NCBI GenBank assembly: GCA_043228905.1
Contig: JBHGNT010000004.1
Coordinates: 13,578,001 to 13,642,000, forward strand
Length of the DNA stretch: 64,000 nt
Source of the DNA: Azolla caroliniana
Lineage: Eukaryota > Plantae > Polypodiophyta
Reading direction: 5' to 3'
A program made the position numbers and the translations under genes. Below are positions 21 to 58,480 of this stretch, in pieces. Each line of letters starts with the position of its first letter. Position 1 is the stretch's first letter. The notes beneath the pieces were generated by a model. That model had not been told where the DNA came from. It did not search any database and worked only from the letters and a program-made list of their open reading frames with translations.

Positions 21-425
21 TGTCATAATATGGCAAGACTCGAACCCATGACCTTATGGTATATGGGTCGAGCTCTTAACCATCACACCATCTATTGTAA
101 TTCATAGGATATTATTTTCATTTATATTTTATTATAAGAAAGTAATGTATATTCCAGATTTCTCTGGAACATTCTAGAAGTTTCAAGATTACTCCTGACA
201 ACACTATAAAAGAAGGCACTAGGCATTATGTTGAACCAAATTGGTTCAACGCCAGTCTTAAGCCTCTCAGCCGCTTTGTACTTATCTTTTCACATAATAT
301 ATTAGCTGTTATCATCATCTTTTTCTCTCTCTCTCATCCTCGCTATCTCTCTCTCTCCTCTTAATACTAATAATACTACTCTTCTTAGTACTAATTCCAT
401 CTCTGCTTTAGTACTATTCCTGACA
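21..425 (+). repeat. 5' LTR of family A element
   Basis: Direct repeat of 5128-5540; TGTCA...TGACA termini; TATAAA at 205-210. Confidence 0.95.
31..92 (-). promoter_or_regulatory. tRNA-like Pol III A-box/B-box cassette in LTR U3, antisense (also at 5138-5199, 12824-12885, and on + at 13885-13946)
   Basis: Minus strand TGGTGTGATGG (A-box-like, 80-90) and GGTTCGAGTC (B-box, 37-46) at tRNA-like spacing of about 45 nt. Confidence 0.7.
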
Positions 426-440
426 GTTTGAACCAATTTG
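426..440 (+). promoter_or_regulatory. Non-tRNA (self-priming type) primer binding site
   Basis: GTTTGAACCAATTTG follows the LTR, lacks TGG, and is complementary to LTR 237-249 (CAAATTGGTTCAA). Confidence 0.75.
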
Positions 441-497
441 CCTTTCCTCCAGCCTACTTGCTGTTCTCCCTCATCCTCCTACCCTTTTCCCTATACT

Positions 498-1655
498 ATG
501 GCTACTGTTAGTGCCCAAGAATATCAATCCGTTTTCTCCGAGTTACAGTGCCTAAAAGAAAAGTTTGTTGCCCTGGAACAAGAAAACCAACGGTTGATAG
601 GGGATCTGCAACAAATCGCTCTCGAAAAACAACAAACGCAACAACAACATGGGGAGTTAGCATTACGGGTACAACAACTCGAAGCAGCGTTGCAACATCA
701 AGGATCAAGTCCCCAAGGATTTCATAAAGAGCCCAAGATTGGACTTCCTGTGAAATTTGATGGAACGCGATCGCAATTCTGGGGATTCCTTAATCAGGTA
801 CGCTTCGTCATCCAGATGCATCCTTCCCGATATCCCACTGATGCATCTCGAGTCGGCCTAATAGGCACGTTACTTAGTGGCTCAACCTTGGCATGGTTCA
901 CTCCGCTTCTAGAAAAACAATCACCCTTGCTTAATAACTTTGAAGATTTTATTGGTGAGTTTAAGGCCTGCTTTGGAGATACCAACAGCATCAGGACGGC
1001 GATCAACAAGATCCGAAGAATGCGTCAAGGCGATCGTCCAGCCTCTGCATACGTGGCGGATTTCCTTCTACTCGCCTTAGATATTCCCTGGGATGATCAG
1101 GCCCTCATGGAGCAATTTCGCTACGGCTTGCGCAATGATGTCAAAGATCTGCTTTTAACCTTCCTAGAAGAACCAAAGTCTCTTACGGAGGCAATCAGTC
1201 GAGCGGTCCGATGCGACAACCGCCTTTTCGAACGGCGTTCGGAGCATCAGTTACAAATACCACGCTCTTGGCCGGAACCCACATACGCCTCAGTCATGGC
1301 TAAACCGTTTGCACGCGATGTACCTCAAGCCAATATTCCGACACCGATGGAGATCGACACCATGCGTCGACGCGGCCCGTTATCGGAAGAAGAAAAGCAA
1401 CGACGACGTGCCAATCGATTATGTCTTTATTGCGGTGGACCAGGGCACATCGCCATCAATTGTCCCCATAGGCCAAGAAGACAGGTAAATCAAATCGTCG
1501 CTTGTACTAAACCCGAGTCAATTCTTCCCTTCGGAGTGTCTGATAGTATTAATAGTACTAATAGAGTGTCAGATAGTATTCATAGTACTAATAGCCCAAG
1601 TATCTCAAACAAATTTGAAATCCTTAGTCAATTAGATGAAGAGTTAAACGATTAA
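498..1655 (+). CDS. gag: Gag (coiled coil, retrotransposon capsid, CCHC knuckle), intact
   Basis: Open from ATG 498; KFDGTRS..GFL motif, PTPMEID, CLYCGGPGHIAINC. Confidence 0.9.
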   Translation: MATVSAQEYQSVFSELQCLKEKFVALEQENQRLIGDLQQIALEKQQTQQQHGELALRVQQLEAALQHQGSSPQGFHKEPKIGLPVKFDGTRSQFWGFLNQVRFVIQMHPSRYPTDASRVGLIGTLLSGSTLAWFTPLLEKQSPLLNNFEDFIGEFKACFGDTNSIRTAINKIRRMRQGDRPASAYVADFLLLALDIPWDDQALMEQFRYGLRNDVKDLLLTFLEEPKSLTEAISRAVRCDNRLFERRSEHQLQIPRSWPEPTYASVMAKPFARDVPQANIPTPMEIDTMRRRGPLSEEEKQRRRANRLCLYCGGPGHIAINCPHRPRRQVNQIVACTKPESILPFGVSDSINSTNRVSDSIHSTNSPSISNKFEILSQLDEELND

Positions 1656-4600
1656 GTCCAACCAAAATAGGAGCCATTTGGTTGGACAACAGCCCTAGAT
1701 CTGTACAGCCCATTAGTGGTTCCATTCCTTCCAAGCAAGTTAGCAATGTGTTCCTAGCCCAAGTCATTGTTAGTACTAAAAGTACTCCCCCAGTACCCGT
1801 CCTAGCACTCTTAGATTTCGGAGCTAATTCCTGTTTCATGGATCGAAATTTTGCCCAAGCTTCTTAGATATCCCTAAGAAAACTTCCTTGTCCCGCATCT
1901 GTAGTAGTCATTGATGGTTGTCCCATTGCTTCTGGGAATATTGTAGAAGAATCAGAACCCATTCAAGTTGTCCTAGGTAGTTTTGTGTGTGTAATATCAT
2001 TTAATATAATTAGTAGTCCAGAGCATCCCATTGTCCTAGGATTACCTTGGTTTGAATTACATAATCCAACCATAGATTGGAGAACAAGAGAAGTCCGATA
2101 TCGACCACCCCAAGAATCTACTCATCGAGTTTCGACCATTTCACTCCAATTACTCGAAGAAGGACACAAGGAGGCAATGTTCCTATTTGCAATATCAGTA
2201 CATCCTTCCAACACTATTAAGAAGGACTCCTCAGTACAACTTCTGGCAAAATATCATCCTTATGCCGATGTATTTGACAAGGTAAAAGCCGATACCCTTC
2301 CTCATCACCGTATTTACAACCAGGAACCGAGCCACCATGGGGACCAATTTACAACTTGTTACCCACCGAGTTAGAAGTCCTTCGAGCCTACATAGAGGAG
2401 AACTTGGCAAGCGGGCTCATCCGTCATTCGAAATCTCTGGCCAGTGCACCCATCTTCTTTGTCAAGAAGAAAGATGGCTCACTTCGTCTCGTCGTTGATT
2501 ACCGCGGATTGAATAAGGTCACCATCCGGAATAGGTATGCACTTCCTCTTATATCAAGTCTTTTAGAGCGAGTTAATGGTGCCAAGTTTTTTACCAAAAT
2601 CGATCTACGAGGAGCGTATAACCTCATGCGGATCCGACCGGGAGATGAATGGAAGACCGCCTTTCGCACGCGGTATGGGCATTTCGAGTATACTGTTATG
2701 CCGTTCGGCCTAACCAATGCACCCGCAGTCTTCCAACACATGGCAAATGATATATTCAGAGACCTCTTGGATATCTGTTTGATCATCTATCTTGATGATC
2801 TATTGATTTATACGAAGACCCAGCACGAGCACGATTCTCATGTACTATTAGTACTAAATCGACTCCGCGAGAATGGTCTTTATGCCAAGCTAGAAAAATG
2901 TAGCTTTGACTACAAGCAAGTGGAATTTCTAGGCTACGTCATCTCCTCAAAGGGCATCGCCATGGATCTAGCTAAAGTCCAAACTGTACTAGAGTGGCAA
3001 ACTCCACGGTCGGTACGAGATGTACAATGTTTTCTAGGTTTTGCTAACTTCTACCGTAAGTTTATACAGGATTACTTGAAGATTATCTTACCCCTCACAC
3101 AACTTACGAAGAAGGGCCAAGCATTTCTTTGGTCCATTGAAGCAAATATGGCTTTTCGGCATCTTAAGAAAGCCTTTACATCAACACCGATTCTAGCTCA
3201 TCTAGATACTAGCAAACCATTCATCATGGAGGCCGATGCTTCAGATTTCGCCCTCGGTAGCATCCTTTCTCAACAAGGAGATAAAGAAGAGTTGCATCTG
3301 GTGGCTTTCCATTCATGCAAATTCGATGTTGCGGAAATCAACTGCGAAATACATGACAAGGAGTTATTAGCCATCGTGGATTCATTTGTGCAATGGCGGC
3401 ATTTCTTAGAGGGCTCTCCACATCAGGTCGTTGTCTTTAGTGATCATAAAAATCTTGCTTATTTCTAGAACGCTCGCGTACTAAATCGACGGCAAGCTCG
3501 GTGGGCGCAATTCCTCACGCGTTTCGACTTCAAAATCACATATCGACTGGGGAAGCAGCAAGGAAAAACAGATGCACTATTACGGCGTTCATATCTTGCA
3601 CCTCGTCCTGGTGATCCAACATTTGATAATCAAAAGCAAGTAATCTTGGGACCAACACGATTGCACACGATGCGGATTTTTCACACCCCGATGGATTCAC
3701 GGATTACCGATGACATACGTGCAAACTTGAAAACGGATAGTTTTGCTCAAGACATCCTGGCGCACATTGATACTTCTCGGGCATCCTATTCTCAGTCTTA
3801 ACAACCAGGTATTGACTACCGACAATTCGAATATCATGATGGTTTGTTATTCTTTAAAAAGCGCGTATATGTCCCCGATTGCTCCTGTCGCCTTCAAATC
3901 GTCCAGCATTGTCACGACACCCATACGGCGGGACATTTCGGTAGTACTAAGACGTTGGAGCTAGTGCAACGATCTTTTTGGTGGCCCCACATGCGCCGTT
4001 TTGTCGACGACTACGTGCGGACCTGTGATGCTTGCTGCCGAGCAAAGATGCCACAACACCATCCATATGGCTTGTTGGAACCCTTACCGATTCCAAGTAA
4101 GCCGTGGCAGTCTATTTGTCTTGATTTTATCACAGATCTTCCGGTCTCGCAGGGGTTTGATGCTATCTTAACCGTCGTCGATCGATATACGAAGATGGCA
4201 CATTTTGTTCTGTGTACTAAGGCCATCACTAGCGAGGAAACCGCCGCCCTTGTCATGCGTGAGGTATTTCGGCATCATGGCCTCCCAGACAGTATCATCA
4301 GTGACCGAGGACCGCAATTTGTCTCCAAATTTTGGCAGCATCTCTTCAAGATGCTCAAGGCCTCTTGCAACCTCTCCTCCGGCTACCATCCTCAAACCGA
4401 TGGGCAGGCAGAACGAACAAACCAAACGCTGGAGCAATATCTCCGGTGTTTCCTGAGTTATCAACAGGACGATTGGGCCGAGATTCTCCACTTTGCGGAG
4501 TTTGCGTATAATAATGTTGTTCACTCCTGGACTCGAGTCTCCCTATTCTACGCTTATACCGGTTCTCATCCTCATTGATCGGTGATCGATACCCCAGAGC

Positions 4601-5116
4601 TACCTACCAATCCTCGTGCCGGGGATCATTTGGAGAGACTACGCAAGATCCAGACAGATCTCTCGACTCATCTTCGTCATGCTCAACAGACACAGAAGAC
4701 TTACGCGGATCGTCATCGGCTTCCCTCCTCTTTTGCCATCGGAGAGCGAGTATGGCTCTTACGCCGTCACATCAAGACTACTCGACCGTGCGACAAGTTG
4801 GATTATCGACGACTCGGTCCTTTCCGTATTACGGGTAAGGTTAATGATGTCACATTCCGCCTTGATCTCCCTCCGCAGCTTCAGATACATCCGGTTTTCC
4901 ATTGTTCTCTTCTTGAACCTTATAAAGCAAACACCATTCCCGATCATGTTACACCACCGCCGCCCCCGCTGGAGTTGGACGCCGGCCCGGAGTATGAAGT
5001 TGGAACCCGTCGAGCATGTTGCCAATGCTCAGGATCTGCTTGCTGATTTCCACCGAAAGTATCCGAACAAACCTGGTCCGCAATCAACGCCGACTCGTTC
5101 CACTCGTCGTCTTTAA
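1650..5116 (+). pseudogene. pol: pol (PR-RT-RNaseH-INT-chromodomain), disrupted
   Basis: ALLDFGA protease, YLDD RT, ADASDFALG RNase H, HHCC and DRGPQF integrase; stops at about 1865 and 3466, frameshifts, chromodomain internally deleted near 5000. Confidence 0.92.
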
Positions 5117-5127
5117 GGGGGAGATAG

Positions 5128-5540
5128 TGTCATAATATGGCAAGACTCAAACCCATGACCTTATGGTATATGGGTCGAGCTCTTAACCATCACACCATCT
5201 ATTGTAATTCATAGGATATTATTTTCATTTATGTTTTATTATAAGAAAGTAATGTATATTCAAGATTTCTCTAGAACATTCTAGAAGTTTCAGGATTACT
5301 CCTGACAACACTATAAAAGAAGGCACTAGGCATTATGTTGAACCAAGTTGGTTCAATGTCACTCTTAAGCCTCTCAGCCACTTTGTACTTATCTTTTCAC
5401 ATAATATATTAGCTGTTGTCATCATCTTTCTCTCTCTCTCATCCTCGCTATCTCTCTCTCTCTCTCTCTCTCCTCTTAGTACTAATAATACTACTCTTCT
5501 TAGTACTAATTCCATCTCTGCTTTAGTACTATTCCTGACA
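5128..5540 (+). repeat. 3' LTR of family A element
   Basis: Matches 21-425 with few substitutions; preceded by PPT. Confidence 0.95.
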
Positions 5541-5590
5541 AGAGGCCATCCTTGACGAACGGATCTTGTGAGGGCAATATTTGATGTAAC

Positions 5591-8500
5591 TGTCACAGAT
5601 GTAGACGAGGGCAAGGAAAATTAGGCGAGCTCAATATTAACAAGAGAGAAAGAGAGGTATATAGATAGAGAGGAGCATAGACAAGAGAACGAGAGAGAGG
5701 GTAAACAAAAGAGCGAGAACTAAATTATGCTTCCATAACTGGTGTTGTTCACCTTGATTGTAATCAAGGTGCACCAAAGTATTTATACAAGAATGTGGTG
5801 GTATGCATGTAAGCTAGGAAACATCTAGAGAATGCATGGAAACTTCTAGAGAGTGCATATCTGTGCATTCTCTAGAAGTTTCTTGAAAGTTCTAGTGATT
5901 AACTTAGAATGTAATAAGTTGAAACTTATACAATACAATAATGTATAGATGGAACGTAGCTCAGTTGGTAAGGTTGCCTAATAAGACCAAGAGGTCATGG
6001 GTTCAACCCCCTACATTCCGTCATGTCTATGCCATTATCCTCCTGGCTTATGTGGGTATCGTTGATGAAAATCGTGAATGGCCTCCGGAGCATTTTGTAA
6101 ATGTGTAACTGGCTCCCATGTGGCGTCCGAAATGGGGCAACCTTTCCATAAGACCAAATATTGGAGCTGTCGACGACAATATCGAGAGTACAGGATTTGG
6201 TCAACCTCATATTGTTCGCTCGTCGACAATTCCACAGGTGGCGGTGGAGGAGGGTGTCATCCTGGAATTCAAGAAGGATGGTAGAGTTCGACGAGGGAAA
6301 CATGAAAAAGATCGTCAATCCTGAATGTTGGAGGAAGTGCTAACCAGAAGGCGACTGGGTTGATCCGCTCGATGATACGAAAGGGGCCTGGTCTTTTGTA
6401 GTTCAATTTTGCACATGGACGTTTGGTAGCGATGTGACGACGTAACAGCTAAACCATGTCTCCGATTACAAACATCGGTGCAACTAAGTGATGTTGGTCT
6501 GCTTGATTTTATAGCGGTCACCAGCAACACAAAGCTCCAAGGAGAGGTCACGATGGACATCGTGTAAAGCGTGGGCACACGTCTCTGCCGAAGTATTGAC
6601 CGAAGTTGTAGGTATGGAAATGTTGAAACTAGGGTGAAATCCATAGTTTGCAAAGAAGGGGGAAACCTTAGTCAAAGCATGCACACTATTATTGTAAGCA
6701 AAGTCCGCCATTGCAAGGAAGTCCACCCAATCCTCCTGTTGGTAGCTCACGGTACACCGAAGGTATTGTTCGAGGGTTTGGTTGACTTGCTCCGTTTGTC
6801 CATTAGTTTGAGGATGGTATGTTGAAGACAAGTTGACAGAAGTCTCGAATGTTTGTAGAAGTCGTCGCCAAAACTGGGAAATGAATTGAGAACCTCGATC
6901 AGAGGTGATATCCTCGGGTAAGCCGTGTAATCGAACAACATTTTTAAGAAAAAGATCAATTGTCTCTTCCCCAGAAATGGTTTTGGAGCATGGAACAAAG
7001 TGAGCCATCTTCGAAAACTAATCGACAATGAATAGCACCGTGTCATGTCCACCAACCAGAGGGAGGTCCATGATAAAGTCCATGGATAGAGAGACCCATG
7101 GTCCACGTGGAATAGGGATCGGGTGGAGAAGACCATATACCCGATGGTGAGGCGTTTTGGACCGAGCACATACATCACATGTCTTAATAATAAATTCCTT
7201 GACAAATTTTCAGGGTTGGGGCAACCAAAACCCTCAAGATAGCAATTCTAGGGTTTTCGTAACCCCAAAGTGGCCTGCAAGAGGATCATCATGACAGTTT
7301 TTTAGAACTTGTGTACGACATGAACCTTCAGGAACGTACAAGAGATGATTACGATATAGTAACCCATCCCGGGTTACTAATTGGTTGAGATATGAGATTT
7401 TCATGTCTGGAGATGGGTCATTAATGTGGCCCATGATTTCTTTGGCGAATGGGTCCGACACAGTTGCCGTGGCGATCTCATTGAGCAAAGAATCATAATG
7501 TAACATGCAGGTGGCGAACATCTGAAGTGGATCGGGCCGCAACAAACAATGGGATTGTTGTGAATATGCATCATCTCTTGGGCATAATGCAAAATCAGGT
7601 CGCAGAGAGAGGGCATAAGATTTCCCATGTTGAACTCCGGGTTGAAACAAGACCTCAAAGTCATAGTTGGCGAGAAAAGATGACCATCGGACTTGCCTCC
7701 GATTCAATGTACAACTGGTGGTGAAGTAAATTAGATTTTTGTGGTCGGTCAGCACCTGGATGCGATGTTGGGCCCCAACCAAATAGGGTCGCCATTCAGT
7801 GATTGCTGCTAGCTCTTTGTCGTAGACTGGACAATTGATTTCCGGGGCGGTAAACTTCCGAGAGCAGAAGGCAACAAGATGTAGTGTGCCCTCGTCGTCT
7901 AGTTCGGACAGGACAACTCCAATGCCAAAGTCGGAGGCATCGGTTTCGACTTGGAAGGGCCTTGTGGGGTCGGGGTGAACCAACACTAGGGCTATGAGAA
8001 AAGCTGCCTTGAGGGCATCAAAAGCACGTTGCGCCGTAGAGGTCCAGAAAAATGGAGTATCTTTTCTTGGAAGGATGAAATTAGAGGTTGTAGTAAAGAT
8101 GAAAAACCATTGATAAATCGTCGATAGAAATTTTCAAAACCAATAAATGATTGTACCTCTTTCAACCGAGTAGGGATAGGCCAATCGGTGATTGCCGCTA
8201 CCTTGCATGCATCCATTGTGATCCCGGAGGGTGAAATCACGTAGCCTAGGAATTCAATAGAGGTCCGATGGAATTCACATTTCTCACTTTTGGCGTAAAG
8301 TCCATGTTCCCAAAGTTTTGATAGGATCAATCGGACGTGTCAAGTGTGCTCCTCTATGTTGGAAGAAAAAACTAAAATGTCGTCAAATGTAGATCAGCAC
8401 GAAGTGATCGAGATTTTCCCGAAATATATTGTTCATCATGTGTTGAAAGACCACAGGGGCGTTGGTGAGACCAAAAGGCATCATCTTGTACTCGAAATGT

Positions 8501-10904
8501 CCATAGCATATTCAGAAGGCCATTTTCCACTTGTCTCTTAGCTTGATACACACTAGATTGTAGGCTCCCCGAAGGTCGATTTTGGAGAAGATACTCCCGG
8601 TTCGAAGTTGGTCAAGAAGTGTTGGAATTAAAGGAAAGGGGTAACGATTACATACCGTAATTTTGTTAAGACCCTGATAATCCACACATAGGCGTAATGA
8701 GCCGTCCTTCTTCTTGACAAATAAGATTGGGGCTCCAACCGGTGATTTGGAGGGTTGAATGAAACCCTTGGCGAGGTTTTCATCCAGATATGTGTGAAGG
8801 GCCTCAAGTTCAAGTTCAAATAGCCCATAGATGGGCCCAAATGGTGGGTGTGTGCGCCATCTTGGAGTTCGATTGGGCAATCATAGGGAAGATGTGCCGG
8901 CAACCAGTTTGCATTTCGCTTTTCGAACACGTTCAGAAAGTAGTTATATCTTGCGGGCAAATTGGTGACAAGAGTAGGGATGTCCTATGACACAACGGGC
9001 ACGGAAGTGACCATGCTAGAATCAGCCACAACGGAATAGGCAACGTTAGAGACTGAGTTGAAATCAGAAGAATGTGCAGCCAAGCTGAAAGTAGCCCCCA
9101 CACAAGTAACAGTGTTTGTGGAAAAGTGATGGAGCGGCTACACCAATCCACCATCGGATTGTGCGTTTCCAACCAGGAGAGCCCTAAAACAATCAGATGA
9201 AGAGGGGTTGCAATGAGGTAGAATGTTAATACCTCCTGGTGGAACCCGACTTGAAATACCAATGGGACAGTGGCTTCGGTAACCACCCTTGAAGAGAGAA
9301 CCTGTCCGTCGATAGTTTCAACGGATATGGGTTGTGTTGTGCGAACGATTGGGATTTTATGTGCTTGGACAAACGCGATATTGATGAAACAAGTAAATAC
9401 ACCAGAATTGAGAAAGGCATGGGATTTTATTAAAATAGACCCAAAACAAAGACTTACTTGCAAAGTAAAACCTCCCGTTGGCATGACTGAATTGTAGGAG
9501 CACGAAGAACTAGGGCGACGGAAAGTGTCCAGCGCCATGGCTCCTACTGCCGCCGGACTTGCTGATTTTCCCATTGTCCAGAAACCTCTGCCAGATGTGC
9601 ACAAACGTTTTCTTGTTGTCGAGAAGGCTTTGCAAGACGTGCACGGTGGGATTGATGACGAGGGTTGTGCATCGGGCTGTGGCGGATGACATGGCCGGGG
9701 GTACCACAATAGAGGCAAAGGCCATTGTCACGTCGATGTTGTTGTTGGGCATCGGTTAATGGTTGGAACCAAGCATGGTTGATCTCCATTGGGGTACAGG
9801 GATTGACCTCCATCGGGGTATGAGCACTATTGGAAGATGGCAGCTGAGGCGTGCTTGACGAAACTGATATATATGTCCTTGTGAGTGGAGCATTGTGGGA
9901 GGAAGATGGAAAACCTCAAGTCCCCTGTTCCTCTTGTCGAAGCTCAAAAAGACGATTATCACATTGAACGGCTTGGGAGATTACCTGGGACAATGATATG
10001 GGCTCCGGAAATTTTAAGAGAAGAGTCTTGATATCATTTCAGAGGCCTCAACGAAACTGGTTGCATAAAGCTTGCTCAACCCAGCTGACATCGCACGTGA
10101 TCTGACGAAACTCTGAAGCATAAACGGAAACTGGACGAGAGCCTTGTTGTAAGGAATAGAGTTTCGTGAGTGCCATTCGTCTCCGATTTGTCTCACCGAA
10201 TGTGGCTTTGAGCTCTGCAAGGAAGGCAAGAAAGTTGTCTAGGAGGGGTGATGAGGTCTCGATCGAAGGGGTTGGGTTAGATGCTGACGAAAGGTGAGGC
10301 TCAACGGGTGAAGGATTGTTGGATGTGCTATTTTGAAGCTCTCGCAATAATTGACGAAGGCTTTCATTTTCTAATTGAAGTTGCTCCAAGGCTGCCATTA
10401 CTTGGTTTAAGGCTAAGTCGGACATGGTAACAAGAAGGGAAGGTGAACAAACTGTCACGGATGTAGACGAGGGTAAGGACAAGTAGGCGAGCTCAATATT
10501 AACAAAGAGAGAAAGAGAGGTATATAGATAGAGAGGAGCATAGAAAAGAGAACAAGAGAGAGAGAGAGGGTAGACAAAAGAGTGAGAACTAAATTATGCT
10601 TCCGTAACTGGCGTTCTTCACCTTGATTGTAATCAAGGCGCACCGAAGTATTTATACAAGAATATGGTGGTATGCATGAAAGCTAGAAGACTTCTAGAGA
10701 GTGCATGGAAACTTTTCAAGAGTGCATGAAGATGCATTCTCTAGAAGGTTCTTGAAAGTTCTAGTAAACAATCTAAAATGAAATAAGTTGAAACTTATAC
10801 AATACAAATAATACATAGACGGAATGTAGCACAATTGGTAAGGTTGCCCAATAAGAGCAAGAGCTCATGGGTTCAACCCCCCACATTCCATCGTGTTTAT
10901 GACA
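5591..10904 (-). mobile_element. Full-length degenerate gypsy chromovirus, family B
   Basis: LTRs 10453-10904 (5') and 5591-6034 (3'); TSD GTAAC (5586-5590, 10905-10909); fragmented gag, PR, RT, RH, INT; chromodomain YEVDQIL..YLVLWKG...ATWEP at 6035-6235. Confidence 0.94.
5949..6020 (+). promoter_or_regulatory. tRNA-like Pol III cassette in family B LTR (second copy 10819-10890)
   Basis: TAGCTCAGTTGGTA A-box, GGTTCAACCC B-box, AGGTC variable-loop-like segment, GGAATG/CATTCC acceptor-like stem; anticodon arm does not pair. Confidence 0.75.
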
Positions 10905-12813: not shown

Positions 12814-13476
12814 TGTCATGATATGGCAAGACTCGAACCCATGACCTTAGGTTATATGGGTCGAGCTCTTGGCCATTAGATCATCTATTGTAATACGTAG
12901 GATATTATTTTACATTTTATTATAGGAAATTAGTGTATATTCCAAATTTCCCTGGAACATTCTAGAAGCTTCAGGATTACTCATCAAAACACTATAAAAG
13001 AGGGCACTAGGCATTATGTTGAACCAAATTGGTTCAACACCAGTCTTAAGCCTTTTAGCCACCATTGTATATTCTCTTCATATAATACATATCTTTCTTA
13101 TCATCACTCTCTCTCTCCCTCTCTCTCTTCCTCCTCTGGAAGAAGTGAGCGAGACAGAGAGAGAAGGAATTAGTACTAAACGAAGGATTAGTACTATGAG
13201 AGGTGTGGAACTTCTTCGAGAGAAGGAAGAAGTGCGCGAGACAGAGAGAAAGAGAGAGATTGAGAGAGAGAGGGAGAGAGGGAGTGATGATAAGAAAGAT
13301 ATGTATTATATGAAGAGAATATACAATGGTGGCTAAAAGGCTTAAGACTGGTGTTGAACCAATTTGGTTCAACATAATGCCTAGTGCCCTCTTTTATAGT
13401 GTTTTCAGGAGTAATCCTGAAGCTTCTAGAGTGTTCCAGAGAAATCTGGAATATACACTAATTTCCTATAATAAAA
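12814..13476. repeat. Two family A LTR segments forming an inverted repeat
   Basis: + LTR from TGTCA 12814; about 12915-13125 is the near-exact reverse complement of about 13265-13476. Confidence 0.9.
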
Positions 13477-13487
13477 TTGGTTCTAAC

Positions 13488-13646: not shown

Positions 13647-13956
13647 CGAGGACGAGAGATGATGATAACAGATTATATATTATAAGAAGAGTAAGTACAA
13701 AAGGGCTATGAGGCTAAAGACTGGCGTTGAACCAATTTGGTTCAACATAATGCCTAGTGCCCTCTTTTATAGTGTTCTCAGGAGTAATCCTTAAGCTTCT
13801 AGAATGTTCCAGAGAAATCTGGAATATACATTGATTTCCTGTAACACAATGTAAATGAAAATAATAATCCTATATATTACAATAGATGATATAATGGTCA
13901 AGAGCTCCACCCATATAACCTAAGGTCATGGGTTCGAGTCTTGCCATATCATGACA
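13488..13956 (-). repeat. Family A LTR (5'-type, followed by PBS at 13474-13487)
   Basis: Minus-strand TGTCATGAT start at 13956; abuts late integrase sequence with no PPT. Confidence 0.85.
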
Positions 13957-22395: not shown

Positions 22396-22479
22396 TGTTG
22401 CAAGCAATGTCGTCAATGCGGAAGATCTGAAGCACTCGATTCCTGTTTATTCCCTGTGTATGACTGTTTGTAGGTCGTT

Positions 22480-22517
<38 letters not shown>

Positions 22518-25500
22518 AAAAGAGTCTGTATTGCAAGAAGCAAATAACACAACAGCCAACCTTACAAAAAGGTTACAAGGTCACTATATATAGTGACCGA
22601 CTTAGGGCAACTACCCTTTATGCTAATTACATAAATGGCCAAAACGGGATAATGTGAATACGTCCATTATACACAGGTATTCGACACTCCCCCGTAATGG
22701 GCGTATACATGGGTTATCTAAAATTACAGGTATAGACTTAGGTTCTCGGACATATCAGCTTTGTTCGAGTCGGCAGGGTCCGAAGGCAGAAGACCAAATC
22801 TGGTCGGGTCGGAACAGTTGAAGCCGATCATTAAGAAACTGATGTCGGTTGTCGGGAACCATCCTGCTCTGTGTCCGGCTCTAACCGGACTGGTTTGTCG
22901 TTACGCCCATCTGATGCCGAAGAGACCGAAAACGGTTTGCCGAAAGACACTTGGTCATTCCATCTGCGACATTGTCGGTTGTGGATATTTTCTCTAGACC
23001 GATTTTCCCTGAAATGACGCAGTCCCGAACGAAGTGATATCGAACGTCGATATGTTTGGAGGCGTTGTGGTGAACCGGATTTTTCGACAAGGCAACAGCA
23101 CCTTGACTATCGCTGTAGACAACTGGGGCCGAGTCATGGTCGACTTGTCGAAACGTGTGCGCCAGCCGACCGAGCCACAAAGCTTCTTTTGCTGCGTCGG
23201 ACGCAGCTACATATTCTGCTTCGGTCGTTGAGGTAGCTGTGCACTCCTGAAGTTTCGACTTCCACGAGATTGCTCCATTGCCGAATTTGAAGCAGTATCC
23301 GGTTGTTGATTTCCGACTGTCTATACAGCCGGCGAAATCCGAGTCGGTGTAACCGACTACGCCTGAGGTTCGGTTCGGACCGAAAAGAATGCCGTGATCT
23401 TTTGTGCCAGCCAGATATCTGAACACATGCTTGACTGCGTTCCAATGCGATCGGCCAGGATTGTGCATAAATCTGCTAACGACTCCTACGGCATGAGAGA
23501 TATCAGGCCGTGTCGCGACCATCAGGTACATAAGGGAGCCGACTGCCGGTGCATACGGTACCGACTTCATATCTTCCCCCTCCGAACCGGATGTCGGGCA
23601 GTCTCGCTGAGAGAGCCGAAGATTCATAGGGAGCGGGGTTGAAGCAGATTGGGCTGATTGCATGTTGAAGCGTTCCAAGACACGTCCGATATAGTCGGTC
23701 TGAGACAAAAAAAGATGTCGTTTATCGCGATGCCGACTAATCTTCATGCCAAGGATGTGTCGTGCCGGACCGAGGTCCTTCATGGCAAACTTCAACCGCA
23801 GTTGCCGAACGAGATCGGCAAGTTCGCCCGCGTGGCGTCCAGAAATTAGCATGTCGTCCACGTAAATGATGAGGAAGATGGGTGATCCATCTTGAGCTGT
23901 ATTGGTGAAGAGACAATGGTCCTCATCGCTTTTGGAGAAGCCGATCGATTGGATGAAGTCGTCGAACTTCTTATACCATTGTCGCGGTGCCTGTTTGAGG
24001 CCGTATAGACTCTTCCTGAGTCGGCAGACTAGATGTTCTTGGCCGGTTGCCACGAAGCCTTTTGGCTGTTCCATATAAATTTCCTCCTCGAGATCACCAT
24101 GGAGGAAGGCTGTTTTGACATCTAGCTGAATCAGCTCCAAGTTGTCGGCTGCCACGACGCCGAGTAGAAAACGGAGGGTTGTCATTTTCACCACTGGTGA
24201 AAAAATCTCGTCGAAGTCGACGCCATATTCTTGTCGGAAGCCCTTCGCAACTAATCTGGCCTTGTACTTTGGGGTGGTCGAATCAGACGTCTCTTTTAGT
24301 CGATAGACCCACTTGCAAGGAAGAGCACGTCGGTTCCTAGGTAATTCGACCAGATCCCAAGTCTTGTTTGCCCGAATGGAGTGCATTTCCGACTCCATCG
24401 CCAGATGCCAGGTGGCTGAATTGACAGATGTCGATGCTTCTTCGTAAGACGTCGGTTCGCCGGCGTCGGTGAAGAAAATTCCAGGAGAATATCTCTCCGG
24501 AGGTTGCGACAGTCTCTCGGATCGTCGAGGTATGATTGGGCTGGTCGCATCGGGTATCGAGGTCGGATGGTCCGAAACCGAATCATTCGGCTGTGCCGAG
24601 TCAGAGTTGTCCGAGTCGGTAGTGTAAGGTTCAGCTACCCGTGAAGCTGACCGTGTGTTGAGAGCGGGGCCTTCTTGAAGGGTCGGCACATCGGAAAATG
24701 TTACCCTTCGGACTTCGATCGGTTTTTCGACTGATGGGTTCATAGCCGACTCGTTGAACACAATGTCCGAACTTCGAACGATTTGTCTGCGTTCGGGGTC
24801 CCAGAGTCGGTATCCCATTTCGCCGTCGGATCCATAGCCAAGGAAAATGCATTTCCTGGACCGAGGTGCAAGTTTTCGGCGATCATCTTTCGGAATAAGG
24901 GCGTACGCCTCGCATCCGAAGATCCTTAGCTTGTCGTAATTCGGCTTACTGCCGATCCATAGTTCCTGAGGAATTTGAAGTCCTAGAGGTCTACTTGGCG
25001 ACATATTGATTATGTGTACTGCCGTGAGTAGAGCCTCTGCCCAGAAGCCATCCGACAGTCGGGAGTGTTGGAGCATGGAAACTATCCGTTCTTGGATTGT
25101 CCGATTCATTCGTTCTGCAATCCCGTTTTGCTCCGGACTGTGTGGTGCCGTAAGTTCACGTCGGATGCCGCGTTGTCGGCAGAATTTGACGAATTCTTCG
25201 GATTTGAACTCTCCCCCATTATCTGTCCGAAGGCATTTCAGCTTTCGGTCGGTTTGATTTTCCACCATAGCGAGCCAATCGGTGAAGATCGAGAAGACCC
25301 GATCTTTGGTGCGAATCGGATAGGCCCACACCTTTCGAGTCGAGTCGTCAATAAAAGTGACGAAGTAAGATGCACCGCCTAGAGACTGATGCGGCATTGG
25401 GCCACAGACGTCCGAGTGGACCAAATAGAGAGGTCTCGTTTCTCTTGGTGCTGATGTCGGGTGTGATGCGGCTGCTTGTTTGCCATACTGGCAATGCTCG

Positions 25501-27643
25501 CAAAATTGATGGTCGGAGAAGGAGAGTTTGGGGATGTATCCGGCTCTAGATAGGTGCGTGATGCCGGCCTTGCTGAGGTGTCCCAGTCTTCGGTGCCATA
25601 ATGATGACACAGGAATGTCCACCAAAAACAGGTTACCCTCTCTGAGCGTAACATGTAACGGATACAGTGAGTGTATCTTGGGTCCTCTAGCAAGCAGGAG
25701 GTTCCCCCTGTGGAGTGTCCACCCTCCCGAAGAGAAACCGGCACGAATGCCGTCTTCATCTAGTTGTCCGACTGAGATCAATGGCCTTGAGAGCTCGGGT
25801 ACATGTCGGACATTGTGGAGTACAAGTGTAGAGCCACCTGCAAGGTTGAGCTCTACTGTGCCGATTCCGATGATGTCACAGTGTTGCGAGTTGCCGACCC
25901 GAACTGAGTCGGAGTGACGGATCGTATATTGCCGAAATTGGGACCGATGAGGAGTCACATGAAATGACGCGCCCGAATCCAAGAGCCATGTGCTCGATTC
26001 TTCAGTCGTGAGCAGAACTTCTGATCCGACTTGATTTTCGATTGATAGTATGTTCGGGTCGTCTGGTAGCACATCAGCTGAGAAGCTGACGTAATTGATC
26101 TCCTCATGCCGGCCACTCTTCTTGTTGTTCTTGTTCTTGAGTGCGCGGCAGTCGGCTTTGATGTGTCCGGGTTTCTTGCAGTAGTTGCAGATTCGGTTAT
26201 CCCGTGACTGGCTCCGTCTTCGCTGATTGTTCGGCGGTCGTGAGGAATCTCTTCCTCGTATGTTCGATCGGTCTGTCGAACCTTGTACTACATAAGCGTC
26301 TTCTGTTGAGTCTTTGGCGAAAGACTTTCTCCGAGCTGCTTCGGTCAGGATTGCGCTCGTGACTTCGGAGTATTTGACAGCCGTGGTTGACGCGTTGCAC
26401 ACGGTTGTGACGAAAGTCTCCCATGATGAGGGAAGGCTGCTCATGAGTATCATTGCTCTGAGTTCATCCTCGATTGCCGTCCCCTGTGACGAGATTTGGG
26501 AGCTTATGCTTTCGTACTCATTGAGGTGTGATTGGACCGAGTCGGATTCTTTCATCCGCAAGTTGTAGAGGCGCCGGATCAGAAACATCTTCGTTGCGGC
26601 GACCTTCTTTTCGTAAGTGTCCGACAGTGTTTTCCACAGTTCGAATGCTGTCGTACACGATTGCACCGTGAAATATACCGATTCCGATAGGTGCATTCGA
26701 ATTGTGGCGCGGACGATTCTGTCCAGCTTCTGCCACTCGATTGGTTTGTACCCTTCTGGAGGTTCTTCATTTTCGATGGGATCGATTTGCCCCTTGACTA
26801 TGAGATAGTCCTGCATTTGCTCCTTCTAGAAGTTGAAGTTCGATCCATCGAACTTTCGTAGACTCATTTCTGACGAGCCGGATGTTGATGCCATCAAATT
26901 TGGTTTCGGTTGACGAAGCTCGGTTCGGAGTTGACTACGAACCTTGTTGGAGTGCAGCCAGTTGGCTCACCTGATATCGTTCTAGTCGGATTTGAACCCG
27001 AGTCGGTTCGGCTTCGGAACTTGCTCGAATTGACTCCGGTAGCTTGAGGGACAGAACCGACTGGTCTTCCCGAATGTTGCCGAGTCGAAGTGAGCCCGGT
27101 TCGCTTCGGATATATATGCCGAATACCGATTATTGAAACCGATTATTTGGACCGATTCTGCTTCGGTTGACTGCAGCGACGAGAGAGACGGATCCAACTG
27201 ATCCTCTCGAATGTCGATCAGCCTGATGAAGCACGAATTTAGGGTTGTTGTCTTGAGACCGATCTGCACCGAGTGGTTGCAACGAGCGGCGTTTGGTGAC
27301 CTCTTCGAATGCCGTTTAACCGAATGGAGCACGATCGTGTCAATGTTGCACAAGGGGATTTCACCTCGAGCGGTTACGATCACAAGGAACGGAGTACAAC
27401 CTGCTGGCTTACTCCAAGCAAGATAATCTAACGCAATGAGATGCAAACCTGGTTTTTCTTCTTCTTCTCTCTTCTTCGAATGACGCAGGAAACCGAATGC
27501 AGAGACGACGGCCGACAGCGGATTGAAGGACCGACTACTGTGCAGGCTCTGATACCAGATGTTGCAAGCAATGTCGTCAATGCGGAAGATCTGAAGCACT
27601 CGATTCCTGTTTATTCCCTGTGTATGACTGTTTGTAGGTCGTT

Positions 27644-27683
<40 letters not shown>

Positions 27684-27852
27684 AAAAGAGTCTGTATTGC
27701 AAGAAGCAAATAACACAACAGCCAACCTTACAAAAAGGTTACAAGGTCACTATATATAGTGACCGACTTAGGGCAACTACCCTTTATGCTAATTACATAA
27801 ATGGCCAAAACGGGATAATGTGAATACGTCCATTATACACAGGTATTCGACA
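22396..27852 (-). mobile_element. Very young full-length Ty1/copia (Tnt1/Tork-like), element E
   Basis: LTRs 22396-22686 and 27560-27852 appear identical except one AG unit; TSD CCTAG; PBS TGGTATCAGAGC 27546-27557; PPT near 22687-22694. Confidence 0.97.
22881..26894 (-). CDS. Copia gag-pol polyprotein; 1311-aa open frame with one in-frame TAG at codon 23
   Basis: CCHC knuckle, WLLDSGAS, HHCC, DDE, YVDD and RNase H all intact; upstream ATG 26894 gives MASTSGSSEMSLRKFDGSNFNF*KEQMQD. Confidence 0.9.
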
Positions 27853-30800
27853 CCTAGGGCCTTGGTGAAGATGTCTGATGTCTGAAGATTCGTGTTGATG
27901 TGTAGAAGATCAACATCTCCGGCCTGAACACGATCTCAAATGAAGTGGTAGTACACTTTGATATGATTTGTGCGTCCGTGGAACACCGGGTTCAAGCCAA
28001 ATATATATTGCTCATGTTGTCGCAGTAAATGGGAGTCGGATCCTTGATGGGAAAAAGTCTCGATCCTTCAAAATCCTCTTGAGCCATACGACTTCACATG
28101 CAGCTACGGTTGTGCCCTTGTATTCGGCCTCCGTACTCGAAAGTGTGACGGTAGGCTACTTGTTACTATTCCAAGATATTGCTCCGCTACCGAGTGAGAA
28201 GAAAAATCGGGAGGTTGATTGTCGATCCACTCTATTGCCGGCCCACTCGGCATCCGTGCACCCTTCGAGTCGAATTGGTGTGGCCGATGCGTAGAGGATG
28301 TTGTAATCCATTCGGCCGCTCACATATCGTAATACTCACTTAGCGCAATCAAAATGGATTTCTCGCGGAGTTTGCATGATTTGGCTAAGGAAGCCGACCG
28401 GATAGTTGAGGTCAGGTCGAGTGATTGTGAGATAGATGAGGCTCCCGATCAGTTGTCGATATTGAGTCGGCTCGCACTCGTCTATGCCGGAGTCGACATC
28501 TAGTTTGAGGTTTTGATCAAGAGGGGTTGCCCCAAATTTGCACTCTATCATCCCGAACTTGTATAATAAGTTGAGAATGTAGTGCCATAGAGAGATTAGA
28601 ATGCCAGTCAGAATCCAAATTACTTCGATTCCTAGGAAGTAATGAAGCTCCATATCCATCATCTCGAATTTGTTGGAGAGGAGGGATTTCACCTTGTTGA
28701 TGTCGACCAAATGCTCACCTCCAATAACCAAATCATCCACGTATAGGATAATGACAATAAGACTTCTAGAGTCGTTTTGTACGTAGAGAGAGTTGTCGGA
28801 TTTCGACATTTTAATGCCGATTTGATGAAGATATTGCGTAATCTTCGAATGCCAAGCACGCGGTGCTTGCTTGAGGCCGTAGAGTGGCTTCTTGAGTTGG
28901 CACATAGCTTTTGGATGAGTACGTGATTTGAAACCGGGTGTTTGTACCATGTATACCTCCTCTTCTAATTTGCCTTGAAGAAAGGCATTCTTACCTCCAT
29001 TTGATGGAGGTGCCACCCTTTTGCTGCTTTGAGTGCAATTACGGTCCACACCGTCGACATCTTTGCCATGGGGGAAAATGTCTCTTTGTAGTCGACTCCA
29101 TGTGTTTGTGTGTATCCTTTCGCTATGAGTTGAGCTTTGTAGCGGTTTATGGAGCCATCAACCTTATACTTCACCTTGTAGATCCATCTACAACCAATCG
29201 CCTTCTTATGCGGTGATTGGGGAACGAAATCCCATGTTTCGTTCTTGCAAAGTGCTCGCATCTCTTCGTTCATTGCTTCGACCCATCGTGGGTCCTTCAA
29301 GGCTTCGGAAAAGGTTTCCGGCTCCTGTACTGTCGCTACCTTCATCATAAAGGCGTAATGGTACGCCATATAATTGTTGTAGCCAAATCGGCAGAGCTTC
29401 TCGTTTGCAGTTACTAAGGCTTTCTTCACTCCATTTGTCCGGATGTCAAGGCCATCAAACTCACTATCGAGGGAGTAAGTTGATTCGTTACCGTCGAAGT
29501 GATCTTCTTCATACTCCAGTGTTTTCGCCTTCCCTTTGTCCAGCTTCGGACTCGGCCGAGATGTGCTTTGATCGATCGGAGGCTCTTGTGGTTCACTAAG
29601 CCATGTCGTAATCGGGCTTTCTTTGAACATGTGTGTGAGGCAATCTTCAGCTTCAATCTATATTTCGGCGGATGAATCCGCTCGACCTGGAATCCGCCGA
29701 GCACTTGTACCCCTTTTGCTCCAGAGAGTATCCTACGAGCATACATTTCTCTGACTTCGGGTCTAGCTTTTGTCGCTTCTTGTTGCGGATGTGCACGTAC
29801 ACAATGGAGTCGATTATCCGAACATGTGATAGGTGCGGAGTAAGTTCGTGCACAACTGATGTCGTACACCGATTCATGAGGTTTACGGCCATGTTAGCCA
29901 CATCTACCTAGTACCACTTCGGCACGTGCTTTCAGTCATCATGCCCCATGCTACTTCAAGGATGTGTTGATTCTTTCATTCCGCCACCCCGTTTTGTTGT
30001 GGCGTATCTTGGCACGAAAACTCTCGATTCCTTATTTCCGTAGATGCACCGTAAATTCATCGAAGAATTACTCCTTGCCTCCATCTGACCGAAGACATCG
30101 TACATGTCGGCCCATGGCTTTACCAACTTCAATCTTAAAGTTTTGGAAGTGTCTGAACACTTCACTCTTTTGCCGCATGGGGTAGATCCAAGTGTGCTTG
30201 GAGAAGTCGTCGAGGAAGGCCACGTAGTATCGGCAGCCGCCGAATGTAGCCGTTTGAGCCGAACCCCATACATCAGAATGAATTACGTCAAGTATGCTTT
30301 TACTCACATTCTGCTCCTTCAGAAATGGATGCCAATGATGCTTTCTGAATTGGCAAGCGGCACACACGCCTTCAATCTCTTTCTCCGTGAATTTCGGGAG
30401 CCCGATGACAACTCCTTTCGATTGCAATACCTTGAACTTTTGGAGGTTGATATGCCCAATCCGCTTGTGCCATAACTCTACAACGGAATCGGCTTTTGTG
30501 CCCTTTGCGAACATGGCTGATTTCATCTCGTGCGAGTCGACAATGGACATCCGGTCCTATCTTCATCTGCAAGCGATCAATCGGCCCTCTTTTTTGATGA
30601 AGCAACCGCCTTGATTAAATCGTACTTGCCGACAGAGACCAAATTCTACGTAATGGTTGGTACATGCAAGGCATTCTTAATAAAAGTTTGGTAACCTTCT
30701 TTGCCGGATGGGACATTGCCAATGTGTCGAATCGGATGTGTAGTGTCGTCTTCGGTTTCGACATAACTAGGTTGTCCGGCTCTCGAAGTTCTCGGAACCA

Positions 30801-32363: not shown

Positions 32364-35300
32364 AAGAGGTTTCAAAACAAAATGCACTTTAGCCTTCATT
32401 GTCCATGGAAACAATGGCAAATAATGTAATATCAGGGGGTTACATAATACATTGTATGACCTTCAAGCGTTCATGAAATGGTCAAGATTGTGACTTCCAA
32501 TACATGAACTTATCCCTCAACTTACCAGACATGTCCAATCAAACAATTGACCATTTGTAACATTCATTCCTATTGGATAACCCATGTGTCGAAAAATAGA
32601 CTGCCTTTCTTCACCACAGATCCTTGTTATCCTAACCATTCTAAATCCCTTTTAGTACACGATATGAGACTAGAATTCCTCCAATTAATATGTAATCCGG
32701 AAGCAAATGCAAATTGGTCCCATAAAAGTCTCAAGATTCTCTCGTGAAGCTTGTAAAAACATGAAGGAATTATCAACCAAAGCTTGTGCTACTGGTTGCC
32801 CTCCAAACAGAAGGTGTAGACCCACAATGTCAGCATTTGTTGCAAGCCTTGATAGCATCACTAACAAGGGAAGGGTAACAATAGCAAACAACAATGGGCT
32901 AAGAGGCCATCCTTGACGAACGGATCTTGTGAGGGCAATATTTGATGTAACTCCCCCATTAAGCATTACTCGAGACACCGCATCTTGTCCTAGTAAAAAT
33001 ATAAGGCGAGACATATGAGGTCCAAAGCCCATTGTATGCATTAACCTAGAAACAAAGGACCAATTAATATGATCATAAGTTTTCTCCAAATCTAATTGCA
33101 CCATAATCAATTGTTGATGAGTTTTCGAGCATAATCATGGCCATTTGAACATTCAATACATTATGCAATATATTCCTACCTGCAATAAAACCATATTGGG
33201 CGAGATGTATAAATTTTGGCAAATACTGTTGTAATCTATCTGTCAAGACCTTTGTTAATATCTTATACAACCCCCCATCAAAGAAATAGGTCTCCATTAA
33301 TGAAATGACTTGGGAGATGCCACCTTTGCAACTAATTTAATTAGACCAACCTTCGAAGCTTGAGGCATACAACCAGAATCCCAAGAATGTTGAAACATCA
33401 AAGTTAAGGGCCCCTTTAAAATGTTCGAATATCACTTAAAAACATCATTTCTCAAGCCATCCCAACCAGGGCTCTTACCACTAGGAAGATGCCTTATAAC
33501 CGTGTCCACCTCATCCTCATTGAAATTTGCATCCAATTCATGACTAATGAGGTCATGCACAATACATCCAACCACATCATAAAACTCATGACGTGCTCTA
33601 CTCACTTCATTTGTCATTAACAATTGTGGGCCAATCAATTCCTTAAATTAATGAACACATATATGTCAATTATTGTAGTAGGATCCACTATCAATTCATC
33701 CCCTTGCTTCACATGTACCACATTAGATCAAGCATAAATAGGATATAACGCTTGGAAAAACGAATGAGATCGAGCCCATCCCTCGATTGCCACATCTTTG
33801 TACAACGATAAAATTAGCATTGCAATGGAGAAATAATAACCTACAATTGACTTTTGGATATCCAAAAGCTCATCATCAAATGGTGCATGTATCAATAATG
33901 CATTACACCTAGAGAGAACTTATGAGAATTGGTAAAGAAGACCTCTTCTTCATCGAGCATTAGTTACTCCATAAATACGGTGAATGGTCTTAATGTTTCG
34001 TAACGTGGTATCACATGCTTCAACTCCTTTAAGGTTCACTTCTTGTGAAAAATTTACGAGAATTTGCTTCATGAGAGAATCAAAGCGAGGTTGAAGCAAA
34101 AGAGAAGAGTTAAAGCGTAATGGAGGCTTTCCAAGTAAGGATTTATATATGTCAAATGCATGACTACAAACCTCCAAACAAATATGAAATTGATCTAAAA
34201 ATTCATACATCTTGTAGAAATGTCATACGAAGTGATGACCGTAAAAAAGAATCATCGTGTATCACATACATTCTATCTAACCAACTCCATGTTTGTCTAT
34301 GCTGAGCAAATTGGGAAGTAAAACCTGGATCATTCCCATGCAACCATGTCCAAACATCCAACTTCAGAACCTCCATAGCTAATGAATCCATGATTGAATG
34401 TTCACGCATAGATTGAGATGCATCAACACACATGTTAAAATCACCCATAAGTAATCTTGGATGGCCCACACACAAGGTTTGAAGGAGTGAGCCCCATAAT
34501 GCATTATGTTGAGTGGCTTGGTTAGGGGCATAAATCCAAACCTCCCACACAACCTTGCCAAAAAACATGATTTCTAGAACCAAAAACCAACCATAAGGAT
34601 CATTATGCACCCGTTGAGGATAATATTTATCCCACACGATTAATACCACACCTGAATAATGATTATTAAGATGCATTGCATAGAATGATGAATATCCACA
34701 CAAATGAACTGTGGATCCTGGTAATTCATGACACTTATGCCCAACTGCACATAATATATCCCATTCTATACTTAACAAAGTTTCCCATAATATATGCTTC
34801 TTATGAGGAGAACATGCCCCTCTCACATTCCATGTTACCACTTTCATTCAACCAACAATGTTATGGGTGCACTTGCACCATTAGAGCAATCGATGTCATG
34901 AAACTAGTCAAAGCATGTTCCAATGTTGCATATGGATTCTCATTCACCACATCCTTATAGTAGTCTATCAAAATCTTTTGTTTAGGTCTTCCTACATGAT
35001 GAAAACCTCGAGAATTCGATAAATTTACAACCCATCCCAATGAATCACATTGAAGGTGAAGGGGTAATCCCCTTATGCCTAAATTGTCGTTGCCAACGAA
35101 ATTTTCAAGGATCCTCCCTAGTTCCTGAATTACCTTGCCAAGTAGTCTCACCAGTAGTGGGCAAACTATTACATTGCATATTCATTGATTTCCCCTTCGA
35201 CTTGCCCTTAACCTAATGTCAATCTTTGTCAACAACAACATCATTATCTTTGTCCCCTTATTTATAACCACTAACTTTTGTTTTTCCATATAGACTAATT

Positions 35301-40532: not shown

Positions 40533-41155
40533 AAGGATTTAAGGTGGAAGTGTAATAAGAGTGTAAATAGATGGAGGGTTGTAAGGATTTAAGGTGGAAG
40601 ATGTTGATGATTGGGGGGGGGGGGGGGGGGGGGGGTGTGATACATGACCGTTATAAATGAGAACGTTACACATTCTTGTACACATGCACATAATTGTGCA
40701 TGTGCCCATACATATACTCATCCTCACACACTCATTTTCTTTACACATACACATCAACCACATCATTACACATACCCTTATGCCTCCCCGTATATTCTTA
40801 CGGGTAACAGCTGATGATAGGAAGATTGATAGGATGATAACACAGATGAGTGATTGGGATAGGGTGATAAAGGGAAATGAATGAGTGATAGGGTGTGTAA
40901 TTATATATACGTAAACAAAAGATGGTGAGAAGGTGAAAATCAAAGAAGGGAATAATAAGGGAAAGGAAGGAAAAGAAAAAGGAACTTAGTAAGAGGTGGT
41001 GGGGAGAGGGGTCGAGGGAAAAGAGAGAAGAGAGAGAGTGTATAAAAAGGTAGTGAGAGATAGAGGGGAGGGGGAGAGAGAGATGTGTTTGACTAGTAAA
41101 TAGTAGTAAGGGGTAAGGAGAGAGGAACAAGGAAGGGGGATAGATTAAATGAAGG
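40533..41155 (-). repeat. Second copy of the 3' region of the Penelope-like element, with a G23 tract at 40613-40635
   Basis: 40641-41155 is a direct repeat of 43471-44016. Confidence 0.75.
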
Positions 41156-58408: not shown

Positions 58409-58448
58409 ATATAGAGAACTGTTATTTTCTGAATAGAGTTTTGTGTCT

Positions 58449-58480
<32 letters not shown>

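Follow-up and report, generated by a model that had tools for sequence, protein, structure and literature searches.

A backwards tRNA-type promoter, predicted to fold as one hairpin in most copies, in the LTRs of protein-coding gypsy retrotransposons of Azolla caroliniana

RESULTS

Gypsy elements of the window

We analyzed a 64,000-nucleotide stretch of Azolla caroliniana DNA (contig JBHGNT010000004.1, positions 13,578,001 to 13,642,000), referred to here as the window. It is comprised of nested retroelements with Ty3/gypsy and copia domains and a LINE endonuclease, and no host gene was recognized within its 64 kb. The named relatives of the copia proteins are land-plant proteins, with ~45% identity or less. 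The gypsy LTRs carry the feature under study, an antisense pair of tRNA-type A and B boxes, which we call the cassette. A young copia element (22396-27853; LTRs 99.3% alike) with an open frame of 1,314 residues is without one. Elsewhere in the window, RT-like frames on the minus strand (40641-41155 and 43471-45217), with an end of 500 bp that is repeated, have a Penelope-type look by eye, and a DUF7869 frame (57614-58558) contains a 126-bp tandem repeat.

Element A1 (21-5540, plus strand) is a Tcn1-like gypsy element with LTRs (21-425 and 5128-5540) that are 94% alike, a 5-bp target duplication, a 13-nt self-primer match, and a broken pol. Element B (5590-10904, minus strand), also Tcn1-like, lies within LINE-like DNA and has LTRs that are 88% alike and a 5-bp target duplication. 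Element F (36128-40532, plus strand; LTRs 89% alike, the 3' LTR cut; 11-nt self-primer match) was placed in one family group with B because the B and F LTRs are 80 to 83% alike. LTR H (63716-64000, plus strand), which sits inside a copia LTR and is cut by the window end, has its self-primer region in common with B and F and probably belongs to the Tcn1-like clade. Element G (46356-53974, plus strand) is a distant gypsy element with a tRNA-type primer site and a 4-bp target duplication. Its LTRs (46356-47114 and 53243-53974) have near-identical 5' ends and close 3' ends yet are 69% alike overall; a chimera or conversion is a possible explanation of this mismatch despite the flanking duplication. 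The stretch before its 3' LTR (53200-53242) is without a clear purine tract and contains a small hairpin and a G-rich stretch.

The carriers are 4.4 to 7.6 kb long and gave matches to gag, RT, RNase H, and integrase. Reading frames are broken in all four full-length window copies; long open frames were found only in a metagenome relative, L008 (1-7649), a tandem pair of Tcn1-like copies with one common LTR, in which gag and pol (at least 1,137 residues) are open. In size, domain order, TG...CA LTRs of ~400 to 470 bp, 5-bp duplications, and self-priming, A, B, and F fit the Tcn1 chromoviruses as these are described in PMC6317226 and PMC2864245. All three are laid out for self-priming: rather than a tRNA primer site, they have an LTR stretch that is complementary to the bases directly following the 5' LTR, with complements of 13, 8, 11, and 12 nt in A, B, F, and L008, respectively. 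Neumann et al. predict self-priming in the majority of Tcn1 elements and, among plants, give the group only from mosses and club-mosses (PMC6317226). A chromodomain-like motif was seen by eye in B and F frames outside the 37 frames scanned. A, B, and F fit as Tcn1-like by sequence, in a tree that holds no named Tcn1 reference and with a likeness to the Selaginella element SM-Tcn1 that was judged by eye. A self-primer match arranged as in family A is also visible by eye in SM-Tcn1; PMC2864245 itself reports none. The family-A self-primer (232-253) is a palindrome with B-box-like sequence on both strands, probably by chance. CATGCA, which we take to be an RY-type motif, occurs 2 to 6 times per LTR counted in B, F, G, and H and 0 times in A1 and one copia LTR.

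Antisense A and B boxes at the starts of gypsy LTRs

The initial annotation held that every gypsy LTR with an intact 5' end carries antisense A and B boxes. This was confirmed: the pair was found in the first 200 nt of the LTR at 11 of 11 cited sites. Positions are given in tRNA numbering. In family A, the cassettes are at 36-90 in the A1 5' LTR (minus strand; A box at 77-90, B box at 36-46), at 5143-5197 in the A1 3' LTR (minus strand), where C56 has decayed to T, at 12829-12883 in a truncated LTR, A2 (minus strand), and at 13887-13941 in an LTR on the minus strand, A3 (cassette on the plus strand). Those of B are at 5957-6010 in the 3' LTR and at 10827-10880 in the 5' LTR (both plus strand), and those of F are at 36159-36212 in the 5' LTR and at 40143-40196 in the 3' LTR (both minus strand). 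In G, the 5' LTR cassette (46465-46518, minus strand) has a decayed B box, and the 3' LTR cassette is at 53351-53405 (minus strand). The cassette of H (63721-63781, minus strand) is degenerate, with a good B box and a weak A box (7/9). The distance from T8 to G52 was 43 to 44 nt in 10 LTRs and 50 nt in H.

When the first 200 nt of the LTRs were scanned, an antisense score of at least 17, a cutoff chosen after the data had been seen, was reached in 11/11 gypsy LTRs and on the sense strand in 0/11. No shuffled sequence (0 of 150 dinucleotide shuffles each) and none of four copia LTRs reached this score. Pair scans of the whole window gave a modest excess (13 matches versus a shuffle mean of 5.8 and maximum of 11; at a second threshold, 14 versus a mean of 5.3 and maximum of 9). 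Strong box pairs were confined to LTRs, and no free cassette was found outside LTRs within the 64-kb window. A candidate copia-LTR cassette at 33985-34043 was rejected, as it sits in LINE-like DNA and has no A58.

The cassette lies 115 to 270 nt outside the TATA-like site of its element and faces away from that site, out of the LTR. The DNA upstream of it is 69 to 94% AT, and plant tRNA genes likewise have AT-rich upstream DNA (PMC13437025). In A1, a candidate TATA at about -27 was not accepted as a conserved upstream element, since its bases vary in most related contigs among the matches listed. The LTR edge is 5 to 35 nt past the B box in the Tcn1 families, and in G the segment lies ~108 nt inside the LTR. 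Both G copies have a T run inside the LTR, 31 nt (5' LTR) and 22 nt (3' LTR) after the B box. A T run was found outside the LTR, at 51 to 217 nt, in four copies, and none was found in the scanned stretch (up to 260 nt) in seven Tcn1-type copies. Since the Tcn1 families have no T run before the LTR edge, a putative transcript would enter flanking DNA; from a 3' LTR, it would run antisense into the purine tract and the integrase end.

Conservation of the boxes between and within families

Promoter-critical positions were kept at 144 of 156 sites in 12 cassettes, with A and B boxes at a spacing workable for a type 2 Pol III unit. Among four family groups, compared by ungapped anchoring, mean identity was 0.48 to 0.69 for the A box and 0.50 to 0.91 for the B box, versus 0.20 to 0.55 for the spacer and 0.26 to 0.48 for the upstream DNA. 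Within families, the 14-nt A box was less alike than the spacer (0.73 versus 0.84 to 0.96 in family A and 0.82 versus 0.88 to 0.90 in B/F). The initial annotation had suggested a check of whether the boxes are better kept than their neighbors; they are between families, but the A box is not within them. Its statement that boxes, spacing, and orientation persist stood up, all 11 sites being antisense.

G10 and C56 were each lost in 4 of the 12 cassettes. In related contigs from public DNA runs, among the matches listed, the C56 of G made up 54 to 64% of depth in four runs, being the canonical base in most related copies of the G 3' cassette, and the A14 of family A made up 61 to 100%. Contig depth, which is a rough guide only, was highest over the B box in both A and G. 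Because related contigs mostly show the canonical base, the deviations of the window copies are largely decay. Promoter-like conservation across deep divergence supports selective maintenance in protein-coding elements. To this extent the claim that autonomous elements maintain a Pol III module is partly supported, but the A box, no better kept within families, does not bear it out. Judged by its sequence, the cassette is a real and probably selected feature.

Relationship to tRNA genes and SINEs

ARAGORN called no tRNA at the cassettes (0 tRNAs). The Rfam tRNA model, for which the gathering score is 29, scored the B 3' copy (5950-6021) at 14.4 bits and gave no tRNA match for the first A copy, A1. 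Together with folding, these searches gave no cloverleaf and no anticodon arm, in line with the earlier observation that the anticodon arm is lost. A tRNA-like acceptor stem is kept in both B cassettes. A cassette-derived pattern matched real tRNA genes in 6/6 viral loci, and there was no eukaryotic tRNA among the fetched loci that could be the donor. The cassettes are not tRNA-derived SINEs with head, body, tail, and their own target duplications; in the 64-kb window only the head is present, with the strong box pairs inside LTRs. Over the whole window, Rfam searches turned up nothing beyond low miRNA matches on CT/GA repeats. At 12914-13477, two family-A LTR pieces make up an inverted repeat of 97% identity that could give rise to long double-stranded RNA; an Rfam MIR1023 match within it was set aside as likely spurious.

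A predicted hairpin between spacer and B box

Eight cassettes were folded in the tRNA sense. One long hairpin was predicted for A1 5' (z of -3.7) and B 5' (z of -3.3), and a hairpin of the same shape for G 3' had a nonsignificant z, as did the folds of the other five. One arm of the hairpin consists of the A-box end and the spacer start, and the other consists of the B box and the bases beyond. In a duplex test in which the boxes were held fixed and the spacer was shuffled, 9 of 13 cassettes (including five A copies that are close kin) were beaten by at most 7 of 300 shuffles, a result given by 2 of 30 real tRNAs; the test was nonsignificant for L008, F 5', G 5', and H, the last being without a long hairpin. 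A five-pair core helix reached at least 3.5 of 5 at the same place in 12/13 cassettes, including F 5', versus 1/30 tRNAs, in a register that was picked from the data and with per-copy P values of 0.0004 to 0.26. Position 59 is paired as C-G, G-C, or T-A, depending on the family, and position 57 is paired as C-G or T-A. When arms were swapped, those of B/F and G 5' paired with the family-A 3' arm about equally to or better than with their own. When RNAalifold was run on a MAFFT alignment, three T-stem pairs were all it found, and the long helix was missed. By strand, the fold was more stable in the tRNA sense in 7/13 cassettes and in the element sense in 6/13, including all four B/F copies.

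The hairpin between spacer and B box is a feature beyond what the initial annotation had observed, and we regard this modeled structure as probable, not proven. Since most copies have a spacer predicted to pair with the B box, the spacer is not free; the remark that the spacer differs by family is right as to its divergence between families and needs qualifying in this respect.

Two lineages carry the cassette

In an integrase tree of the best 48 of 161 rows (those closest to A, with at least 120 residues), A1, A3, B, F, and the metagenome relatives L007 and L008 formed one clade (97/94), with L009 and L010 as its sister (88/88). Integrases of the clade are down to ~50% identical, and A and B/F LTRs align in short patches only. 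The cassette is present in L007 and in L008, where the spacer is new, and it is absent from L009 and L010. By eye, it also is absent from SM-Tcn1 (PMC2864245); the U3 of this element has tandem repeats, and Pol III boxes go unmentioned in the available text of PMC2864245 and PMC6317226. Tcn1-like elements, therefore, do not need the cassette, and with a single cassette-bearing clade the chromovirus cases are most simply explained by one acquisition. In 70 of 157 outside loci, the start of the 3' LTR could be guessed and was followed by 150 nt, and some of these starts will be wrong; an antisense pair was found in 1/70 (L008) and a sense pair in 2/70. L007 does not enter this count, as its contig stops too soon.

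G represents a second, distant lineage, as its tRNA-type primer site, its 4-bp duplication, and an RT only 25% identical to that of A indicate; in the atlas, this RT fell only with clusters of plant and fungal RTs. At positions 62 to 70, however distant the elements, G and A have 8/9 bases the same, compared with 3/9 for A and B and 1/9 for A and L008, and 8/9 sharing was seen in 3 of 666 tRNA pairs. This likeness suggests that the module was exchanged between G and the A lineage through U3 DNA, although convergence forced by pairing with the A box could produce it too. Neither single proteins of A or G nor an A/G LTR pattern matched anything in scans of viral contigs. The "several dissimilar families" originally described thus come down to two lineages, one of them with a single inherited module.

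DISCUSSION

Protein-coding gypsy elements in this window carry, in their LTRs, a backwards tRNA-type promoter that is predicted to fold as one hairpin in most copies. The closest described relatives in make-up are the Helenus TRIMs (TRIMp3, including Helenus-1_SMo), which likewise have a tRNA-derived segment in both LTRs, with conserved A and B boxes and no working tRNA (PMC10886601). Helenus elements, however, are noncoding and 311 to 1,263 bp long, whereas the carriers here are gag-pol elements far above ~1 kb; and in the LTR of the Selaginella Helenus-1_SMo the segment is, by eye, in the sense orientation, whereas all 11 window cassettes are antisense (PMC10886601). The Helenus segment has been proposed to drive transcription of its own element, and according to Kojima, autonomous partners have to rely on Pol II, and it is unlikely that they have such LTR sequence in common (PMC10886601). 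Being antisense, the segment described here cannot make genomic RNA. The cassette, by its sequence, resembles Helenus but fails to match it in size, coding capacity, and orientation.

Among autonomous retroelements, the foamy-virus cassettes (PMC3993851) and the bovine leukemia virus (BLV) miRNA cluster (PMC12498455) likewise combine type 2 Pol III promoters with hairpins, and those of foamy viruses are located in U3, as here, a precedent that the initial annotation does not mention. In both viral systems terminators stand at the hairpin base and small RNAs have been demonstrated, whereas most families here have no terminator; the BLV B box is beyond the terminator (PMC12498455), whereas here it is inside the predicted hairpin at tRNA-like spacing. 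The RNA of the Brassica SINE SB1, a tRNA-derived product of Pol III, no longer forms a cloverleaf but stem-loops, as predicted here, and it binds HYL1 (PMC2408557); unlike SB1, the cassettes lack a SINE body and tail and have no target duplication of their own. No description of antisense tRNA-type boxes in autonomous plant gypsy LTRs came up in our search, which covered a minority of subscription papers and Repbase entries, and the available part of PMC6786969 has nothing on antisense LTR cassettes. By analogy, the cassette may work like a tRNA-gene barrier or like a retroviral Pol III cassette.

Taking all readings together, we consider it likely that the cassette is a working Pol III promoter. 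The reading we favor, while giving it somewhat less than an even chance, is a TFIIIC/Pol III unit that acts in cis, is kept by selection, and shields the outer edge of the LTR from silencing. TFIIIC would bind the cassette and place TFIIIB toward the Pol II promoter, and the two would keep the region nucleosome poor or block the spread of heterochromatin. Outward transcription by Pol III would stop within the LTR in the case of G and in flanking DNA in that of the Tcn1 families. The hairpin, about equal on both strands, would hide the antisense and genomic RNAs from each other and so reduce double-stranded RNA, a step that we add because a barrier working purely at the DNA level needs no hairpin. 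The G and A lineages may have the module in common via exchange of U3 DNA. tRNA genes sit in nucleosome-poor DNA and have been described as insulators (PMC11346459). A role for TFIIIC/TFIIIB in cis is favored by the constant location of the cassette at the outer edge, where it and the Pol II promoter stand back to back, by the promoter-type conservation, and by the want of both a defined 3' end and a common small-RNA sequence. Against it stand the A box, which is less alike than the spacer within families, the losses of G10 and C56, and the absence of the cassette from L009, L010, and, by eye, SM-Tcn1.

An RNA acting in trans is possible by analogy, if on balance doubtful: Pol III would make abundant hairpin RNA, either a substrate resembling a pre-miRNA or a decoy that occupies Dicer-partner proteins. 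The spacer/B-box pairing that beats shuffles in 9/13 cassettes, the core helix seen in all but one of them, the different Watson-Crick pairs at positions 59 and 57 across families, and the terminator-like T run inside the G LTR all fit such an RNA, for which the foamy-virus U3 cassettes (PMC3993851) and SB1 RNA (PMC2408557) are precedents. It sits poorly with the four cassettes in which the long hairpin is nonsignificant, with the RNAalifold result, with a helix register picked from the data, and with arms that pair as well across families as with their own. Moreover, the LTRs of Tcn1 copies are without a terminator, and no conserved sequence is fit to be a common mature small RNA. We think it rather unlikely that two unrelated gypsy lineages swapped and kept a U3 Pol III hairpin gene whose multicopy RNA titrates or feeds the Dicer pathway.

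Three further explanations fit less well than the cis and trans readings. The hairpin might work on the sense strand, in genomic RNA or cDNA near the plus-strand start, with the tRNA boxes riding along. The element-sense fold is the more stable one in 6/13 cassettes and the segment lies close to the LTR edge in the Tcn1 families, but changes between families fall mostly at promoter-free positions (57 as a purine, 59, and 60) and leave the invariant ones untouched, among them A-box bases that the helix does not involve; with the tRNA-sense fold better in 7/13 and the G segment so far inside the LTR, we regard this as improbable. It is equally improbable that the cassette is a neutral remnant of a tRNA or SINE head that inserted long ago and has been copied along with the LTR. 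A-box variation within families, decay in the H and G copies, sister elements without a cassette, the acceptor stem still visible in B/F, and the "not a few" Repbase LTRs with partial tRNA matches noted by Kojima (PMC10886601) would suit a relic; the boxes, spacing, and orientation, however, outlast LTRs that barely align and integrases at ~50% divergence, and a new predicted helix stands in place of the cloverleaf. Finally, the cassette might be a docking site for retroelements that seek tRNA genes, or a tether to Pol III sites. Ty3 is the analogue for such tRNA-gene-seeking insertion, and this analogy is what the proposal draws on; alignments showed an insertion just upstream of the cassette in 0/11 LTRs, and B and G lie in LINE-like or other repeat DNA with no tRNA nearby, which makes docking highly improbable.

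Small-RNA promoters in LTRs have been described for nonautonomous TRIMs, where they are thought to make the element RNA. A backwards promoter that is kept in coding elements therefore points to another role. If the arrangement is as we propose, outward-facing Pol III promoters would be scattered through the genome. About 7,500 tRNA genes are predicted in one fern, and counts are very high in some seedless plants (PMC13578239); the overlap of such counts with LTRs is worth checking, though ARAGORN called none of the cassettes. Should the Dicer-pathway reading be true, the cassette would be a retrotransposon counterpart of the foamy-virus miRNA cassettes and a transferable antisilencing module. 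If it is either a TFIIIC boundary or an RNA decoy, it would give plant retrotransposons a compact, cis-encoded resistance to silencing, and a module of 60 nt would make the barrier activity of plant tRNA genes testable.
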